64,000 nucleotides of DNA from a virus (taxonomy: Duplodnaviria; Caudoviricetes): the IMG/VR virus record IMGVR_UViG_3300027804_002812, positions 160,001 through 224,000 of that record; one strand, given 5' to 3'. The notes beneath the pieces are model-generated. The model did no database searches. It had not been told where the DNA came from and saw nothing but the letters and a program-made list of their open reading frames with translations. Below, in pieces: positions 16,756-64,000 of the stretch; the stretch's first letter is position 1, and each line of letters begins with the position of its first letter. Both the position numbers and the translations under genes were made by a program.

Positions 16756-16788
16756 AATTCACTAATTTATATTATAAATACACGTAAT

Positions 16789-19519: not shown

Positions 19520-19690
19520 AACTAATAGTTTTACTTATAAATACTTTTATTTCTTCGTTTTTTCATTTGACATTATCTCACATAAAATTTATTATTGTAT
19601 TACACAAGTGAGTTCTGTATTTTCATCCGATAGTATCTTGGTAATTTATTTATCGCCTCAATTTATGGACTCACTTGTTTTTTAACTACT

Positions 19691-27486: not shown

Positions 27487-27512
27487 TGGTTTGATATTTC
27501 CTATAAATACTC

Positions 27513-28130
27513 TTACTCTCTATTAAATTTTAATTTCCAATAAACACCTCCTGTTACATATGGGGTAAATTTACCAGTAACACCATCAAAGGTTCTATTT
27601 GCAACACCACCACCCAATTGGAATATCTTGTCATCTTTTGTTTTCAATAATATACTTGTCCCGAGTGAGTTGACCCAATCTTGATGACTTAAGGCTCCGT
27701 TCAATCCCACATAAACTTGGTTTCTAACTTTTGGTGGTTCAGGTGCTGGTTCCCTAACAATCTTAGGTTTTACATTTGTTGTAAACTTTCTTGAAACAAC
27801 GTTATTTTGTGAAATGGTGTCAAACAAATATATAACCCCCTGATTATTACTCAACATTATTGTATCTTGAACGAAATTTTTTATAAAAAAATTTTTTAAG
27901 ATGAATGCAGTGTCAACAAGTGGTGTTGGGGATGGAACCTCAACGATTTTTTCCACTTCAACTTCGTATGGAACCTCAACTTCGACCTCATAAATAACTT
28001 CCTGAGGGATTGTATCATAAACCAATTTTTCTTCTATTTCAATTTGTGGAGGAACGAAAAATTGTAAGAAGATTATTACACCCACCATTATGAGTATTAC
28101 TATGTGTCTGATGTCAAATATCTTTTTCAT
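27513..28130 (-). CDS. Membrane-anchored envelope protein with beta-rich C-terminus
   Basis: N-terminal TM segment, VEVPY repeats, several DT(I/A) sequons. Confidence 0.65.
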   Translation of the reverse strand: MKKIFDIRHIVILIMVGVIIFLQFFVPPQIEIEEKLVYDTIPQEVIYEVEVEVPYEVEVEKIVEVPSPTPLVDTAFILKNFFIKNFVQDTIMLSNNQGVIYLFDTISQNNVVSRKFTTNVKPKIVREPAPEPPKVRNQVYVGLNGALSHQDWVNSLGTSILLKTKDDKIFQLGGGVANRTFDGVTGKFTPYVTGGVYWKLKFNRE

Positions 28131-28134
28131 ATTG

Positions 28135-29439
28135 TTATAACATTAATCTTGAACCAATCAAGAAATTGCTAAGAATTGGAGAACTTGAGTTACCCAATGC
28201 TCTGTAGTTTAGGCTTAATCCGAATCGTTTACTTATTTTATAATCAAATGAGGAACCGACTAAGAAAGAAAATTGTCTATTCACCGTTGACTCACCTGTT
28301 TTGGGGTTATATGAAATTGGTGAGTTCATTAAGAATACTTGGGGAGATAATGTGAGCTTTGGATTTACAACATAAGGTTTTGTCCAAAATACAACCGCTG
28401 AGGTCGCAAGAGATACGTTAAATGCTCTTTTAATTGTTCTTGTTTCAGTATTAACTTCAGTATCTTTCAACAATAAAGTTATTAAACCAACGTTATATCC
28501 GTATGTACCATATTTTTCACTTGGTTTAATATTCGTGTACCCAAGTAATCCCATATAAGTTCCATCTAAGTAAGCCGCGGTGAATGAGTAAGAGTGGATT
28601 TGACTTAATTTACCTTGTTGGAAATTCATTTTTGTATATCCCCCACCCAAAGCAAATTGGTCTAATGTACTCCAAATCATGGCGTTTGCACCCCAAGTTT
28701 CATTCCCTGCTAATGACGATTGACTAACACCAAAGGAGGCGATGGCGCTGTATTTCAAATCGGGTCCCTGTGCGGTTGTCAAGTCTGAGGAAACCAACAT
28801 TGGATTTACGGGACCAACTTTCTTTTTTTCTTCTTTACCTTTTCCGTCTGAACTTTCTTCATCACTTTCACCCGAGTCTCCACCATCTGAACCACCTTCT
28901 TCAGACCCACCCTCACTCGAACTTGATTCACTCGATCCTGACTCACTTGAACTTGATTCACCGCTACTCGAAGACGATGAGGATTCACTTGAAGAAGATT
29001 GTGATGATGAACTAGACGAACTAGATGATGAGGATGTAGGAGTGGAACTACTTGCGGAAGACGCAGCAGTTGAGGAGGCTGATGAAGATGCCGCGGAAGA
29101 TGCTGCAGATGAGGCTGCTGACGACGCCGCATTTGCCGCCGCTTGTGATACAGTTTGGGTGACAGTTTGGGTTACCACCGCATTTGCGGGACATGGAGTT
29201 GAAAAAATTCCGTTAATCCAAATGGTAACTTCCCCCGAAGTAAATTGTTGATAATTGAATATCTTGGATTTGTTTCTGACGATAACTAATACACCATTGT
29301 TAGATTGTATGGGTATGGATACCACATAAGTTTTTGAATCACAGGGGTCAATGTATGTTTGTGTAACAACTTGCCCCTGTGACTCGTGGTATGCTAATAC
29401 CATGAATAATAACATTAAAAATATTTTCAAACTTTTCAA
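28135..29439 (-). CDS. Exported protein with Ser/Ala/Glu linker and C-terminal beta-barrel-like domain
   Basis: Signal peptide, long S-rich linker, amphipathic strands ending ...FLIGSRLML. Confidence 0.7.
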   Translation of the reverse strand: MKSLKIFLMLLFMVLAYHESQGQVVTQTYIDPCDSKTYVVSIPIQSNNGVLVIVRNKSKIFNYQQFTSGEVTIWINGIFSTPCPANAVVTQTVTQTVSQAAANAASSAASSAASSAASSSASSTAASSASSSTPTSSSSSSSSSSSQSSSSESSSSSSSGESSSSESGSSESSSSEGGSEEGGSDGGDSGESDEESSDGKGKEEKKKVGPVNPMLVSSDLTTAQGPDLKYSAIASFGVSQSSLAGNETWGANAMIWSTLDQFALGGGYTKMNFQQGKLSQIHSYSFTAAYLDGTYMGLLGYTNIKPSEKYGTYGYNVGLITLLLKDTEVNTETRTIKRAFNVSLATSAVVFWTKPYVVNPKLTLSPQVFLMNSPISYNPKTGESTVNRQFSFLVGSSFDYKISKRFGLSLNYRALGNSSSPILSNFLIGSRLML

Positions 29440-29461
29440 TTTTCATCGGTTTCCAAATATT

Positions 29462-30184
29462 TTATTCTGTGAATATACCTTTTTTAATCATTCTATCTAA
29501 GATTCTGGCACAAGCAATGTCAAGTGCCTTTTTTGTTGCGATAGATATTGTAGATTGATTAAATTTTACTGGATCGACAGTTGCGTCTGATAAAAGAGTC
29601 AATTCTCTTGTGGTAACCGCCTCTCCAAGTCCTGATGCTCCAAATACGACACCTGTTTCAGCATTTGTAAATCTAACTTGTAGACCAATACGGGTAACCA
29701 TCATATTTTTCACACCATCTTTCAGGTTTACAGTTTCATCTTCTGAGATGGAGTAATCATAACATTCAATAGTTACAAAATATTCTGCCAAATTGATTTT
29801 ACCAAATCCATCTAATTGATTTTCAGAAATTCCCGCCTGAGATGCTTGAAATTGTTTCACCATTCGGTTTTTAATTTCCGTCTTATCTTCAGTAAATTTG
29901 AATCTGTTTAGATTCTCAAGATATTCCATTGAAATGTTCGCAACACCTAATCCAACTCTTTTTTCTTTGAGTTCAGGATACATCTCATACATTTCATCTG
30001 AAATACCTGCCTTTAGGATTTGAATTGGAATCTGTTTTCCTTCATAATCCATAAATTGACTTATGTCAATTGCGGTTTCGAATGAAGCCTTGTATTGCTC
30101 AGTCTTTGTGCTTCCCACAGTTTGAGAAAACGCCGATATTTGTACTATTAGTGCAAATATCGACGATAATATAAATTTTTTCAT
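29462..30184 (-). CDS. CsgG-like (curli secretion channel family) exported protein
   Basis: Signal peptide; GLGVANI.MEYL..LNRF...ED..EIK; VRFTNAETG.V..ASGLGEA. Confidence 0.65.
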   Translation of the reverse strand: MKKFILSSIFALIVQISAFSQTVGSTKTEQYKASFETAIDISQFMDYEGKQIPIQILKAGISDEMYEMYPELKEKRVGLGVANISMEYLENLNRFKFTEDKTEIKNRMVKQFQASQAGISENQLDGFGKINLAEYFVTIECYDYSISEDETVNLKDGVKNMMVTRIGLQVRFTNAETGVVFGASGLGEAVTTRELTLLSDATVDPVKFNQSTISIATKKALDIACARILDRMIKKGIFTE

Positions 30185-30212
30185 ATTAAACCTCAATTGT
30201 ATTATATGTTTA

Positions 30213-30374
30213 TTAAGGTCTCTTTGGCCAAGCCCAACCCTTCTTCTTACCTCTCAACATCAAGTAAGTCACACCTCCGAAGAAGATTAACATATATAAT
30301 GATGGTGAATAAAATACAAACATGGCAACCATCAACAATGACAGAAATACCATAAAACTTAAAAATTGTTCCAT
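30213..30374 (-). CDS. Small membrane peptide (53 aa)
   Basis: Manual translation MEQFLSFMVFLSLLM...KGWAWPKRP. Confidence 0.55.
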   Translation of the reverse strand: MEQFLSFMVFLSLLMVAMFVFYSPSLYMLIFFGGVTYLMLRGKKKGWAWPKRP

Positions 30375-30375
30375 A

Positions 30376-30702
30376 TTACCATTTTGGAGAGGTTTCTTTG
30401 AACTCGTCTCCTTCTTTTTTCTTAGGTTTATCTGTCGATGCAGGTTGTGATGCTGGTTGACTTGATTTTTCTCTGATAATCACAGTTTCTTTACCACCAG
30501 ATTGTTGCTGTTGGTTGTTATTGTTGATGATAATTGGTGTTTGTTGTTGGACAGGTGTTGCCGCAGCTTCTTCATCTCCACCGATGAATTTACTTGTCAT
30601 AACACCACCAGCTCCTAAGACTGCAGTAGTCAACAATCCGATGATTGTTTTCTTTAACCCTGTCCATGTTCCATCATTGTGGTCTTCTGTTTCTTCACTC
30701 AT
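30376..30702 (-). CDS. Membrane-anchored low-complexity protein
   Basis: TM segment and Q/N-rich tail. Confidence 0.7.
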   Translation of the reverse strand: MSEETEDHNDGTWTGLKKTIIGLLTTAVLGAGGVMTSKFIGGDEEAAATPVQQQTPIIINNNNQQQQSGGKETVIIREKSSQPASQPASTDKPKKKEGDEFKETSPKW

Positions 30703-30724
30703 AATTTATTTTAGTTTAGTTGGT

Positions 30725-31087
30725 TTATTTTATTATTATTGGGTATTTTATTTCTTTTCCTGAAACATCCAAAAAGACCAAGTCATAATATCCTTTGGGA
30801 AATTCAGTCAAATCGTATACTCTTTGTGTGGTTGTGTTAGTAGCCGTGAATCCCTCCTTCTTTGCGGGGATTTCTTGACCAAACGCGACTATTTGAACAG
30901 AGTATTTCGCACCAATGGTGGTTTCAAACTCTATTATCACTACGTTTTCACTCTGAAAAACAGATTTGATGTTTGTAGTTGTTGACTCAACTCCTAAATT
31001 GATTTCAGGCATCTCCTCGTAATAAGGGTTGAAACATCCTTGTAACAAGAGAACTGAGAAACTTAGTATTGCTATTATTTTTTTCAT
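30725..31087 (-). CDS. Lipoprotein, Ig-like
   Basis: MKK...LQGC lipobox; beta-rich C-terminus. Confidence 0.7.
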   Translation of the reverse strand: MKKIIAILSFSVLLLQGCFNPYYEEMPEINLGVESTTTNIKSVFQSENVVIIEFETTIGAKYSVQIVAFGQEIPAKKEGFTATNTTTQRVYDLTEFPKGYYDLVFLDVSGKEIKYPIIIK

Positions 31088-31088
31088 T

Positions 31089-33194
31089 TTAGAAATTATT
31101 ATATCCCGTTAATTTTATTTGGGTTGTGTTTAATTTTATCCCTAACTGAGAACCCTTAACTGTACTTGCGTCCATAGTTGAGGATACTTTGATAGAAGTC
31201 AGAATATCGACTCCATTCCCGATGGTTGAAAATTTCAACTTGAACGGAATCGTATTTCCAATTATTGGGGTTTTTTCACCTTGATCTATACCACCGAATT
31301 TGACTTTACCGTCAACAGAATTGACAAATATGTACCATGTATTTGGTAGATTTGGCGACAACTCCTCAAACTTTATCTTTGTTGGGTCATAATCAAATTC
31401 AAACTGTAATCCTGTGATAGGATTACCATTTGTTGTTACATTTACTGGGATTTCGATGTTGTTAGATGTCACAGTCAAATTAGATAGGTTGACATCTACT
31501 GATGGAACATTATTTGGAGTATTGATAAATGACTCAGTAGACATGGTTCTAAACGCAGTGTTAGACTTCAAACTATTTGATGCTCTACTTACAACAGATG
31601 ATACTCCATTATTACTAACAACAACTTGTGATGAATGTGAACGATTCACATCTCCCCACAAAAGATATTTCAAGTCTACAACTGTGTTAGTTCCTATTGT
31701 CCCTGTTTTCACATAAACTTTTGGATATTCAAAATCTTTCCAATTCGTTGTGGTGATTGCTCCCCATGAATTGGACGGTGAAGTATTAAATGTAAATTCA
31801 GCCCTCAGTCCGAAGTCTGGTCCTCCATTTATATTTCTTATGTATGGGGCATATGCCGATGTTCCTATAGTGCTTATACCTGATGGTATTCTGAAAGTTG
31901 CCCAAGTGGCATCTTTTGATACAAATTCTATAGGACCTACATATAAGTCAAAAATCTGAAGTGATTTTACGTTGTCAGGAATGTTAGTTCCGCTAAATTC
32001 TCTCATATCAATCAATATTCTTGACACGTTCTGAGAATAATGGTTAGGTGTAATGATACCCCATTCTACTTGTCCTGCGATTGTTGTCGCATCAGTTGAA
32101 ATCCATGTTGGGATACTCATGAATTGACCACTACCTACGGTGTATCCGTTTGGAAGAGTAACCAGTTGGTCAATACCCACAACTTGTGATAATAATTTTG
32201 GTAAGTCTCCACCGTCAATGGTTTTGTTTCTGTTAATGTCCGCTGTGTATAGAGATTGTCCTGTATTGATTGTTTGTCCTTTACTTCCATCCAATCCCAT
32301 AGTCGAGAATTCTCCTTGTGATGATGTGAAATCAGAAATTGTGATAGCATTATTATAAATCGTATTTAGTTTATCCATTTCATGCATTACAGAAACTTCA
32401 TAAACTTTATTTTCAGATAACAAGGACTGATTTATATCAACATTACCATTTGACAAAACATCGAAAGTTTGACCAGTATTGGTTACAGTATCTTTGAAAG
32501 AAACTTTCAATTTTGACAAATTAAGTAAATTAGTGTTTGCATCAACTTTCGCAGTAATCAATTTACCCGTGTTTTGATTCATGATTACATCAGTTGATAA
32601 TGGTAAATCCATGATTGTAGGTACTCCTATCCCTTGTCCATTCCATCCAGCAACAAAGTTTAATTTAACAGGGTTAAATGCATTCGATGTAGATGTTGGT
32701 TTCAATCTAAATCTTACAATTATTATTTGAGAAAACTCATTGAAAGGCATTGGAGAGGTTGTTGCCCATGTTAAAGTTGCTCTTATGATTGCATTGGAAC
32801 TTGTTACATTATATGAATAAGCTAAACCTGTTGTATATCTTGTTGTTCCATTAGTATTAGTTGTGTTTCCAGCATAGCCATACCCAGGGTAGTTTTGCCA
32901 AGATAGTTGTATATTAGATCCTGTTGGAAATACTCCTCCGTTTCCACCAGTACCTGTATGATTGATGGAAATTATTTCAAAGTTTGTTTGGTCGTATTGA
33001 AAGTCAAATAGTAATTGTCTTGTTACAGCATCACCATTACCATTCGCATGAACCATAACATCAAATTGGTCTCCTCTATCAATCACTCCCCCACTTATAT
33101 CTGTTAAAACTCTTGTGTCGGGGAACTTAAACCTAATTTGTCCAAATGAAGTGAACGAGATTAGGAAAAAAGATATTAGTAATATATTTTTCAT
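31089..33194 (-). CDS. Exported cohesin-like/dockerin-like domain protein
   Basis: Signal peptide; cohesin-like segments at both ends (FDFQYDQTNFE; GLQFEFDYDPTKIKF); Ca-loop DINRNKTIDGGD. Confidence 0.7.
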   Translation of the reverse strand: MKNILLISFFLISFTSFGQIRFKFPDTRVLTDISGGVIDRGDQFDVMVHANGNGDAVTRQLLFDFQYDQTNFEIISINHTGTGGNGGVFPTGSNIQLSWQNYPGYGYAGNTTNTNGTTRYTTGLAYSYNVTSSNAIIRATLTWATTSPMPFNEFSQIIIVRFRLKPTSTSNAFNPVKLNFVAGWNGQGIGVPTIMDLPLSTDVIMNQNTGKLITAKVDANTNLLNLSKLKVSFKDTVTNTGQTFDVLSNGNVDINQSLLSENKVYEVSVMHEMDKLNTIYNNAITISDFTSSQGEFSTMGLDGSKGQTINTGQSLYTADINRNKTIDGGDLPKLLSQVVGIDQLVTLPNGYTVGSGQFMSIPTWISTDATTIAGQVEWGIITPNHYSQNVSRILIDMREFSGTNIPDNVKSLQIFDLYVGPIEFVSKDATWATFRIPSGISTIGTSAYAPYIRNINGGPDFGLRAEFTFNTSPSNSWGAITTTNWKDFEYPKVYVKTGTIGTNTVVDLKYLLWGDVNRSHSSQVVVSNNGVSSVVSRASNSLKSNTAFRTMSTESFINTPNNVPSVDVNLSNLTVTSNNIEIPVNVTTNGNPITGLQFEFDYDPTKIKFEELSPNLPNTWYIFVNSVDGKVKFGGIDQGEKTPIIGNTIPFKLKFSTIGNGVDILTSIKVSSTMDASTVKGSQLGIKLNTTQIKLTGYNNF

Positions 33195-33689
33195 TTAATT
33201 TGTTTCAAATAGTTTAGTAACCAAGTTATCACTTGCTTTCTTCAAAGCATTACTCAATGATTGCTGATTGAAATTTCCTCCGTTGTCCACAATCAGTGTT
33301 GACATAGAAATTTCAGATGATTCTTCTTCGACAATAACTTCTTTGATTTTTTTCCCATCAACCTTCAAAACTCCTCTAAGACGTATTACAACAGATTCAC
33401 TGTCTTTGTGAAATACAGAGACATTCGTCTTGGTTTTTAATACATCCAAGTAGATAATTTCAATAGATAATTTTTGTTTGGAGTCAGGGTTTAGATCGAA
33501 ATTTTTTTCTTGTAAAAATTCCTCTGTGATGTTTCTCAAACCGAATTCTAAGTTTCGATTTCCTGCGAGATTTCCCACTTGAATCTTGTTTACAACAGAT
33601 TCAACCCATATTTCATCAGTAAGATTTGTGGTGATATGGGGCATTATATATAGTATAATACCCGCCATAAACAGGGTTAATATTTTCAT
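33195..33689 (-). CDS. Exported alpha/beta protein (CsgG/LptE-like fold possible)
   Basis: N-terminal hydrophobic leader; first gene of the operon after TATTTAT. Confidence 0.6.
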   Translation of the reverse strand: MKILTLFMAGIILYIMPHITTNLTDEIWVESVVNKIQVGNLAGNRNLEFGLRNITEEFLQEKNFDLNPDSKQKLSIEIIYLDVLKTKTNVSVFHKDSESVVIRLRGVLKVDGKKIKEVIVEEESSEISMSTLIVDNGGNFNQQSLSNALKKASDNLVTKLFETN

Positions 33690-33812
33690 TCGATAGTATC
33701 TTGGTATTCATAAATACCACGAAATTTAATTTTGTCCTAAAGTTTTAGTTTATGTTAGTGTGAACTCTTTTATCCTAATGAGTCAATATTTATAGACATA
33801 AAATAAATTACT

Positions 33813-34640
33813 ATGATACTAAAGAACGGGTCTAAAGGGGAAGACGTTAAAAAACTCCAAGCAAAATTAGGTTTAGGTGCCGATGGTGTATTCGGTTCTG
33901 GTACAGAAGCTGCGGTTAAAAAATGGCAAGCGGCTAATGGATTAACTGCTGACGGTATTGTTGGTGAAGGTACTTGGGCAAAGATGTTCGGAGAGAAACA
34001 ATTAATTACAGAACCATCTACTCCAATCGTAAACGCAGGCCCTTTGAAGTTAGAAAATCTAAAGGGTCACATTCCTGATGCGGTAATCGCACAGATTCCT
34101 GACGCCGCAAAAAAATTCAACATTTCAAATCCACTAAGATTGGCTCACTTTTTAGCTCAGTGTGGACATGAATCTGCAGGATTCAAAGCAGTTCAAGAAA
34201 ATCTTAACTATTCTGCGGATGGTTTGAAAAAAATATTTCCAAAGTATTTCCCTGGAAACTTAGCGGAAGGTTACGCTAGAAATCCTGAAAAAATTGCATC
34301 CAAAGTTTATGGAAGTAGAATGGGTAACGGAGATGAAACTACAAAAGAAGGTTTCAAGTTTAGAGGTCGTGGTTATATCCAATTGACAGGAAAAGACAAC
34401 TACACTAAATTCGCTAAATTCATTGGCGAAGATACTGTAGGAAATCCTGACTTGGTTGCAACAAAATATCCTTTGGCGTCCGCGGCTTTTTTCTTTGATT
34501 CAAACAAATTGTGGGAAATCTGTGATAAAGGTGCTGATGACGCAACTGTTACTGCAGTAACAAAAAGAGTCAATGGTGGTACCATAGGACTTGCAGATAG
34601 AATCAAACACTTCAAAGAATATTTCGGTTTGTTGAAATAA
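33813..34640 (+). CDS. Endolysin: peptidoglycan-binding domain plus GH19 domain
   Basis: LKNGSKGEDVKKLQ...ADGIVG; AHFLAQCGHES, FRGRGYIQLTG, TKRVNGG. Confidence 0.92.
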   Translation: MILKNGSKGEDVKKLQAKLGLGADGVFGSGTEAAVKKWQAANGLTADGIVGEGTWAKMFGEKQLITEPSTPIVNAGPLKLENLKGHIPDAVIAQIPDAAKKFNISNPLRLAHFLAQCGHESAGFKAVQENLNYSADGLKKIFPKYFPGNLAEGYARNPEKIASKVYGSRMGNGDETTKEGFKFRGRGYIQLTGKDNYTKFAKFIGEDTVGNPDLVATKYPLASAAFFFDSNKLWEICDKGADDATVTAVTKRVNGGTIGLADRIKHFKEYFGLLK

Positions 34641-63910: not shown

Positions 63911-64000
63911 ATTGTTGTTTCAGTTTATAATAAATATTACAATATTGAAAAAAAATATATCATCACAAAAAAAAAGGGGTTGGGGTTATTAAACCTCAAC

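Follow-up and report, generated by a model that had tools for sequence, protein, structure and literature searches.

In a lake phage of Bacteroidota, eight adjacent genes form a cassette that is a real, conserved and previously undescribed phage envelope module. The cassette lies at 27513–33689 on the minus strand of a 64,000-nucleotide stretch of DNA (the window), which corresponds to bases 160001–224000 of a 326,291-bp IMG/VR virus record (IMGVR_UViG_3300027804_002812). The other genes of the window are typical of phages and include those for thymidylate synthase, RNA ligase, a homing endonuclease and endolysin-type peptidoglycan (PG)-binding proteins. Among the products of the cassette are a protein of the CsgG fold, a secreted protein that ends in a cohesin fold, a small lipoprotein and a putative outer-membrane β-barrel. 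The host phylum is taken to be Bacteroidota because sorting domains of the type IX secretion system (T9SS) occur in relatives and because the cultured phage immuto, which carries a related cassette, infects Flavobacterium. We judge the chances to be about even that the products constitute an envelope or surface-display cassette, with a lipoprotein-anchored cohesin adhesin, in the infected Bacteroidota cell.

The eight open reading frames (ORFs) encode, in order, proteins of 164, 701, 120, 108, 53, 244, 434 and 205 aa, and the spacing between successive ORFs is 0, 1, 22, 1, 16, 22 and 4 nt. A preliminary description of this region, made from the sequence alone, had reported eight tightly packed minus-strand genes behind a TATTTAT motif, most of them with signal peptides, a lipobox or transmembrane (TM) anchors. 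This layout was confirmed, and by reading of the sequences all eight products bear an export signal, a lipobox or one or more TM anchors: the 701-, 244- and 434-aa proteins start with cleavable signal peptides, and the 164-, 108- and 205-aa proteins have N-terminal membrane anchors. Scans of all eight proteins against PHROGs and NCBIfam returned nothing meaningful.

The CsgG-like protein and its probable paralogue

The protein encoded at 29462–30196 (minus strand; 244 aa) has the CsgG fold and belongs to the CsgG family, an assignment that holds on its predicted structure and on profiles of its relatives. It carries a signal peptide without a lipobox cysteine. The AlphaFold2 (AF2) model has a predicted local distance difference test (pLDDT) score of 84.8, and in a Foldseek search of the PDB the top 17 matches to this model are all CsgG (E 5.7e-8 to 2.4e-6, probability 1.00), with TM-scores of 0.40–0.57, 16 of the 17 lying within 0.46–0.57. 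The next structural neighbours after CsgG are PelC, FlgT, LptE and GNA1162, and the best viral match is a phage protein named CsgG (1.3e-7). The window sequence alone has no Pfam match at E≤1 and none in NCBIfam, and it finds only noise in a sequence search of the PDB. An initial homologue search returned near-identical proteins only, and an exhaustive search of representatives at 50% identity gave 207 relatives. In profile A1, an alignment of 36 diverse relatives, 17 of the 36 members match Pfam CsgG (PF03783; best 1.9e-17) and 7 match LpoB; against the PDB, the profile places Escherichia coli CsgG on top (9e-4). Sequence support for the membership of the window protein in PF03783 is transitive: its homologues and their profile match the family, and the window copy alone does not. 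This gene and the 434-aa gene that follows it (28135–29439, minus strand) are both listed from TTG starts, and their true starts are uncertain by a few codons. The probable real start of the CsgG-like protein is the ATG at 30184, four codons downstream, which public collections use (240 aa); public protein collections start the 434-aa ORF at residue 9.

The first gene of the cassette (33195–33689, minus strand) encodes a 164-aa protein with an N-terminal membrane anchor, which is a probable distant CsgG/LptE-like paralogue. Its Atlas features point to Lipoprotein_16, LptE and CsgG (0.85–0.91), and its identity to immuto gp19, which profile A1 matches at 9e-6, is 30% (E 4.6e-8). The hhalign comparison of the 164-aa family with A1 was weak (probability 8.6%, on a shared motif), the A1 hidden Markov model found no direct match to the 164-aa family of the window, and a PDB search with the profile of that family (A9) gave no match. 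A1 also matches, in each of four bacterial or metagenomic contexts (L083, L084, L087 and L088), a gene that adjoins the CsgG-like gene or lies two genes from it. This bacterial context, drawn from a few metagenome contigs, suggests an ancestral cellular system, itself uncharacterised. The bacterial CsgG-like homologues on these four contigs, which are from metagenomes or metagenome-assembled genomes, are lipoproteins, and a second distant CsgG-like paralogue is encoded next door.

The cohesin-ended protein and its candidate lipoprotein partner

The second gene (31089–33194, minus strand) encodes a 701-aa secreted multidomain protein composed of a signal peptide, a β-sandwich head, a dockerin-like module, a central β domain and a C-terminal cohesin. 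Its AF2 model has a mean pLDDT of 66.7, with confident domains at residues 20–205, 212–272, 367–480 and 563–698 and low-confidence stretches between them; a single-sequence search of the PDB found only noise. Cohesin-like segments had been proposed at both ends of this protein, and the model supports the one at the C-terminus. Residues 563–698 (31101–31508, minus strand) are predicted to adopt a cohesin fold: in VIA-align, residues 564–700 superpose on CaCohA2 (6kgc_A) with a Z-score of 16.6 and a root-mean-square deviation of 2.3 Å over 135 aligned residues, and cohesins fill the first 14 rows of the ranking and 18 of the first 20. The window copy scores 22.7 bits against Pfam Cohesin (PF00963), for which the gathering cutoff is 24.1 (E 1.2e-4), and 24 of the 35 relatives of the protein in alignment A2 match this family (best 1.4e-7).

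The proposed N-terminal cohesin was not recovered. The head (residues 20–205; 32580–33137, minus strand; pLDDT 80–90) has its best structural matches among Ig-like domains of Gram-positive pilins and adhesins (Z of about 9), and the one cohesin-dyad row among its matches spans both ends of the protein. The hhalign comparison of the head profile with the cohesin profile (A5 and A6) is not significant (probability 0.6%), and the head profile finds no cohesin and nothing relevant in the PDB. In 18 of the 35 relatives, Lectin_C stands in place of the head, as the C-type lectin domain of variants of about 760 aa.

Residues 270–345 (32160–32387, minus strand) form the dockerin-like module, which can be aligned across both the 701-aa type and the lectin type. 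A dockerin-type similarity of this segment is supported by its family profile (A4), which finds solved dockerins in the PDB (8x3a at 1.2e-8; 8ajy, the ScaH dockerin, at 4.9e-6; 6kg9, the CelL dockerin, at 3.7e-5; range to 1.8e-3), and by Pfam Dockerin_1 (PF00404), which 14 of 21 family members match (best 5e-4) and the window copy alone does not. The dockerin-like calcium loop of the preliminary description, DINRNKTIDGGD at residues 319–330 (32205–32240, minus strand), is present, but it is the only canonical one. The second repeat (D319–D330 plus helix) fits loop positions 1, 3, 5, 9 and 12, with K where G is usual; the first keeps the helix and lacks the acidic loop, leaving the module short of two tandem F-hand repeats. 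The AF2 pLDDT of the module is below 40, and that of residues 273–366 is below 50. The central β domain that follows (residues 367–480; 31755–32096, minus strand; pLDDT of about 85; no family assigned) is common to the lectin variants of about 760 aa, with 31–43% identity over residues 369–469.

The third gene (30725–31087, minus strand) encodes a 120-aa lipoprotein with the lipobox LLQGC and a β-sandwich resembling a T9SS C-terminal domain (CTD), which makes it a candidate membrane anchor for the cohesin protein. Its cysteine is invariant in 30 aligned relatives, many of which begin with C-x-K-(D/E)-(D/E), a start resembling the surface-export signal of Bacteroidota. Weak matches to Por_Secre_tail (PF18962) were found in 8 of the 30 relatives (best E 0.0038) and to DUF3244 in 9 of the 30 (best 4.7e-5), and the window copy has no Por_Secre_tail match.

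Evidence for a partnership between the cohesin protein and the lipoprotein comes from gene counts and from fusions. Both flanking genes are present in 51 of the fetched loci, and in nearly every one of these the counts of cohesin-ended proteins and of lipoproteins of about 113–130 aa agree (1:1 or 2:2). A regular-expression search for the lipobox gave 39 exact matches, and reading of the alignment restores the LLQGC lipoprotein in those loci of the 701-aa type that had been scored as 1:0. The exceptions are L064 and L073, which encode a 636-aa cohesin protein and no separate lipoprotein. Por_Secre_tail matches 1 of the 35 relatives in A2, which is probably this 636-aa form. In L085, a 103-kb phage contig, a 629-aa protein joins Cohesin and Por_Secre_tail in one chain, and immuto gp15 has, by inspection only, a CTD-like tail after its cohesin. 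Partners that interact are classically recognised by being fused in some genomes and encoded by separate neighbouring genes in others. Because of the fusions in some relatives and the paired gene counts, the cohesin and the lipoprotein can be regarded as likely partners, and this evidence points to cohesin–lipoprotein pairing instead of the self-polymerisation that had been envisaged for a protein with both cohesin and dockerin modules.

Complex prediction for the cohesin with the mature lipoprotein gave a score of 0.34 (runs of 0.54, 0.34 and 0.00), against 0.01 for the best of three controls; the mark for a complex is reached by 58 of 80 solved complexes and by 2 of 110 mismatched pairs, and at scores of 0.60 or below by 7 of the 80 and by both of the mismatched pairs. 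Agreement between the runs extends to at least 0% of contacts; the pLDDT of the partner is at least 70. The modelling thus lends weak support, a modest increment on a prior guess of pairing that was already reasonably likely.

Conservation of the cassette and its linkage to an endolysin

Gene order was followed in the best 80 of 497 IMG/VR relatives of the CsgG-like gene. The order 164-aa gene, adhesin(s), lipoprotein(s), 108-aa gene, small TM gene, CsgG-like gene and barrel gene, in some cases followed by the 205-aa gene, is kept in these loci, and it occurs also in the 103-kb phage contig and in the cultured Flavobacterium phage immuto. Genes 13–19 of immuto have the same complement, in which the lectin, the cohesin plus CTD-like tail and the second paralogue are arranged differently. 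The preliminary description had made its case depend on synteny in related phages and on structure searches; the first was found in the 80 fetched loci and in immuto, and the second supported the CsgG and cohesin folds and the dockerin-type similarity. Loci in which the CsgG-like protein is 90–96% identical have neighbours whose median identities are 55–75%, and the adhesin gene is exchanged in relatives for lectin-bearing versions. From these comparisons, the cassette appears as a conserved core with a fast-changing modular periphery.

Upstream of the cassette, in divergent orientation and 123 nt away, lies a gene for a GH19-type endolysin with a PG-binding domain (33813–34640, plus strand; PHROG endolysin 6.3e-67). 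In 24 of the fetched loci, an endolysin homologue is linked to the cassette: in the 701-aa type the two are divergent; in L025, L027 and L038 the endolysin gene is co-directional, 75–89 nt upstream; and in L059 (5040–5636) and L068 (9119–9943) it separates the 108-aa gene from the CsgG-like gene within the cassette.

Transcription of the cassette

The motif noted ahead of the operon is GTATTTAT (33710–33717, minus strand), a promoter-like element 20 nt upstream of the start codon of the first gene. Its general form, RTATTTAT, occurs 35 times in the window; shuffled sequences give 17 ± 4, and none of 100 shuffles reached 35. Of the 35 sites, 23 lie 0–60 nt upstream of the start of an ORF on the same strand, mostly at 13–20 nt; examples are found at 16774–16781, 19537–19544, 27503–27510 and 63930–63937 on the minus strand and at 33786–33793 on the plus strand, the last being the endolysin's own copy. 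The motif is also kept 5′ of the orthologous first gene in relatives whose flanks are otherwise unalignable. RTATTTAT is thus a candidate phage-specific promoter element, and a scan for sigma-70 promoters and terminators, with a model ill-suited to Bacteroidota, did no better than on shuffles. The placement of RTATTTAT is reminiscent of T4-type late promoters.

One copy stands before the first gene, none lies within the cassette, and the next (27503–27510, minus strand) opens the following gene, a distribution that fits a single transcription unit. The cassette is probably one such unit, co-expressed with the endolysin. In a freshwater metatranscriptome library, error-free contigs cover parts of the CsgG-like gene, the 108-aa gene, the junction of the 164- and 701-aa genes and the endolysin gene, and DNA carry-over is possible. 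The contigs of these RNA runs cover 0.05–0.12 of the stretch; starts, strand and level cannot be read from them, and the uncovered parts carry no meaning.

Other products of the cassette

The 434-aa protein consists of a signal peptide, a cysteine-containing domain of about 90 aa, a Ser-rich acidic linker of about 110 aa and a conserved C-terminal domain of about 225 aa, and its gene directly follows the CsgG-like gene in all relatives. The C-terminal domain is a putative outer-membrane β-barrel. The barrel-like protein of the preliminary description finds some leads in its Atlas features, which score 0.92–0.95 to Porin_O_P, OMP_b-brl, KdgM and Phage_OMP clusters with low shared counts, and in matches of its relatives to DUF5777 (3 of 27) and Porin_4 (1 of 27). 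No more definite assignment emerged: the barrel profile (A3) has no match in the PDB and none to the downstream proteins of the bacterial or immuto contexts, and a scan of the domain for amphipathic strands gave no clear signal either way. In L083, L084 and L088, a protein of 330–420 aa is encoded downstream of the CsgG-like gene, directly or one gene away, with DUF3187 in one case; L087 has no 330–420-aa gene in this place. The variable part of the cassette in L079 (2486–3250) and L054 (6779–7543) includes a gene for a separate 254-aa paralogue of the putative barrel domain, which has a signal peptide of its own and neither stalk nor head; a search with this paralogue returned close phage relatives only, without Pfam domains. 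Antisense to the Ser-rich linker of the 434-aa gene lies a 169-aa open frame (28742–29251, plus strand), which almost certainly arises from the low-complexity repeat and is no gene.

Three smaller products complete the cassette. The 108-aa protein (30376–30702, minus strand) is a bitopic membrane protein with a Q/N-rich periplasmic tail and no family match; its family comprises 73 ORFs of the fetched loci, and immuto gp16 is 56% identical over the N-terminal 43 residues. The 53-aa protein (30213–30374, minus strand) has two TM segments and a basic tail and is holin-like by shape only. Its gene is limited to the closest relatives, and other small TM proteins fill its place elsewhere. The 205-aa protein, encoded by the last gene of the unit (27513–28130, minus strand), is membrane-anchored and has EVEV repeats, a β-rich C-terminus and no family match; its gene is confined to relatives of the 701-aa type. 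Searches with the 53-, 108- and 120-aa proteins found no PHROG or Pfam lysis family. In lectin-type relatives (L029, 8826–9431; L045, 194–724; L052, 8870–9478; and about 20 others), the slot of the 53-aa gene is occupied by a membrane protein of about 200 aa that carries tandem acidic calcium-loop-like repeats (DEDGDG-x-MDG-x-D-x-DGDG-x-IDEYF) and has no counterpart in the window.

Proposed function and alternative explanations

In the explanation that we favour, the Sec and lipoprotein pathways of the host would export the products from the cytoplasm, and these would then assemble in the outer membrane and the periplasm. The core would consist of the CsgG-family protein, the inner-membrane-anchored CsgG/LptE-like protein and the putative barrel on its acidic Ser-rich stalk. 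The variable part would be an adhesin-like protein with a β-sandwich or C-type lectin head, a dockerin-type calcium module and a cohesin end, which the adjacent small lipoprotein may hold at the membrane; in other relatives the cohesin has a T9SS sorting domain fused to it, and here the CTD-like domain of the lipoprotein would take its place. Late in infection, the cell surface would probably be altered, for receptor masking, exclusion of other phages or adhesion. A more specific version of this scheme is possible, and it seems to us rather less probable than the general one: a group of widespread Bacteroidota phages would build a modular surface display on the infected cell from a lipid-anchored, split-off T9SS-sorting-domain-like protein and a cohesin adhesin with a swappable head, with a CsgG-family ring and a stalked barrel as platform, turned on with the lysis genes to mask receptors, exclude rivals or glue cells.

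Several observations weigh against an assembly exposed at the cell surface. The location of each product is inferred. A T9SS sorting domain is absent from the 701-aa protein, as is a demonstrated route across the outer membrane, and so this protein could stay periplasmic. The prediction of its complex with the lipoprotein is weak, one run having scored 0.00, and so are the leads for the barrel. The CsgG-like protein has the fold of the channel named in the preliminary description but may not form a pore. CsgG is a nonamer with a 36-strand barrel, to which each subunit contributes two TM hairpins. The 244-aa protein shares with the CsgG–HfaB family (PF03783; PDB 4uv2, 4uv3 and 6l7a) the α/β fold and a protruding β-hairpin, the AF2 model having one long hairpin at residues 139–178 (strands 139–157 and 161–178). 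Unlike CsgG, the window and immuto copies are without the lipobox cysteine that most of the distant A1 homologues (21–35% identical) keep; E. coli CsgG has about 6 residues more in the segment aligned to the first TM hairpin in profile A1; the second hairpin is not modelled, its region being short and of low pLDDT; and no match to the curli proteins CsgA, CsgB, CsgE or CsgF was found among the eight products in Pfam, NCBIfam or PHROG. The phage protein is, moreover, always followed by the putative barrel protein and accompanied by the second, distant paralogue. PelC and LptE have a CsgG-like fold and serve as non-pore partners of a barrel. Because of the missing lipid anchor and the shorter hairpins, the CsgG-like protein may, by analogy, form a periplasmic ring of the PelC or LptE kind instead of a pore. 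The linkage to the endolysin supports co-expression, and it also keeps a role related to lysis alive.

Such a role, in which the cassette or its small membrane proteins would time lysis or breach the outer membrane together with the endolysin, is improbable in our estimate. The 53-aa protein would act as a holin, the 108-aa protein and the lipoprotein as a spanin-like pair, and the CsgG-like protein as a channel that depolarises the cell or weakens the outer membrane. The proximity of the GH19 endolysin with the same upstream motif, its place beside the cassette in 24 loci and inside it in two, and the two TM segments and basic tail of the 53-aa protein agree with this proposal, as does the lysis-timing role proposed for the CsgGF of phage Melnitz (PMC9004378). 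Lysis would, however, require none of the lectins, cohesins and dockerin modules; the number of lipoproteins follows that of the cohesin proteins, and their domain is CTD-like, not spanin-like (O_Spanin_T7 matches one of the 30 relatives, at E 0.081); the immuto cassette has no adjacent endolysin; and most relatives lack the 53-aa gene. Still less probable is a type VIII-like secretion system, in which a CsgG-like outer-membrane pore would export an unfolded substrate (the Q/N-rich 108-aa or the Ser-rich 434-aa protein) into a fibre or matrix, as CsgG exports CsgA. Its attraction lies in the CsgG fold and family, the long hairpin of the model, the Q/N-rich and low-complexity stretches of the neighbouring proteins and the csgG/csgF clusters of pelagimyophages (PMC7029224). 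Against it stand the missing relatives of CsgA, CsgB, CsgE and CsgF, the lack of a lipid anchor and the shortened hairpins, and the 108-aa protein is anchored in the membrane, not secreted; PelC, LptE and FlgT, which have the same fold, form no pores. It is very unlikely that the products belong to the virion, with the cohesin/dockerin protein and its partners placed on the capsid or tail for host recognition. Adhesin-like and lectin domains that diverge rapidly do resemble receptor-binding proteins, but every gene of the cassette encodes a Sec signal, a lipobox or a TM anchor, the surrounding genes, which encode an endolysin, thymidylate synthase, RNA ligase and a phosphoesterase, include no structural ones, and no product matches a structural PHROG family at a meaningful E-value.

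Relation to known systems

The nearest precedent of the cassette is the phage csgG/csgF cluster. Clusters of csgG and csgF have been described in pelagimyophages (PMC7029224), and for the CsgGF of the OM43 phage Melnitz a role in the timing of lysis has been proposed (PMC9004378). The function of these genes is unsettled, with surface change, aggregation or lysis timing having been put forward (PMC7029224; PMC9004378). The window resembles these phages in that its CsgG-family gene lies in a variable region, with thymidylate synthase and lysis genes nearby (PMC7029224; PMC9004378). The pelagimyophages and Melnitz, in contrast, infect Proteobacteria and encode recognisable CsgG and CsgF without cohesin, dockerin, lectin, lipoprotein or barrel partners; the window cassette belongs to a phage of Bacteroidota, and no CsgF was found in it. 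No description was found in the literature of a phage cassette that joins a CsgG-family gene with cohesin, dockerin or lectin modules, lipoproteins and a barrel.

Other parts of the cassette have counterparts in cellular systems. As in assemblies of the cellulosome type and in non-cellulosomal cohesin/dockerin modules, the C-terminal domain of the 701-aa protein superposes on type I cohesins, and residues 270–345 contain the calcium-loop-plus-helix repeat of dockerins. Unlike in cellulosomes, the cohesin and the dockerin-like module are in a single phage polypeptide, one of the two repeats is canonical, there are no enzymes, and the likely partner of the cohesin is a CTD-like lipoprotein, not a dockerin. 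The 629-aa relative in L085, which fuses Cohesin to Por_Secre_tail (PF18962), is like a cargo of the T9SS; in the window, the cohesin protein is without a sorting domain, and the fold that resembles one belongs to a second protein, which is lipidated. Many lipoproteins of the cassettes begin with C-x-K-(D/E)-(D/E), like surface lipoproteins with an export signal. Finally, a protein of CsgG-like fold is encoded beside a putative barrel, as in PelC–PelB and LptE–LptD, although no sequence relationship to PelB or LptD was found.

Significance

The CsgG-like core gene falls into 6178 clusters at 90% identity in public metagenomes, which indicates that the cassette is ecologically common in lakes and seas. 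Its cultured representative, Flavobacterium phage immuto on Flavobacterium sp. LMO8, makes the proposed functions directly testable. The cassette would also offer natural examples of a cohesin-type domain with a partner other than a dockerin, of a T9SS-sorting-like fold split off as a lipoprotein, and of a short CsgG-family protein that always occurs with a putative barrel protein. Phages alter the surfaces of their hosts by single proteins, such as lipoproteins or modifiers of the O-antigen. A conserved envelope assembly of several proteins, with sugar-binding or adhesin heads that can be exchanged, would, if it exists, be a far more elaborate takeover of the host surface, and modular display, if that is how the cassette works, would mean that an assembly principle like that of the cellulosome is in viral use.

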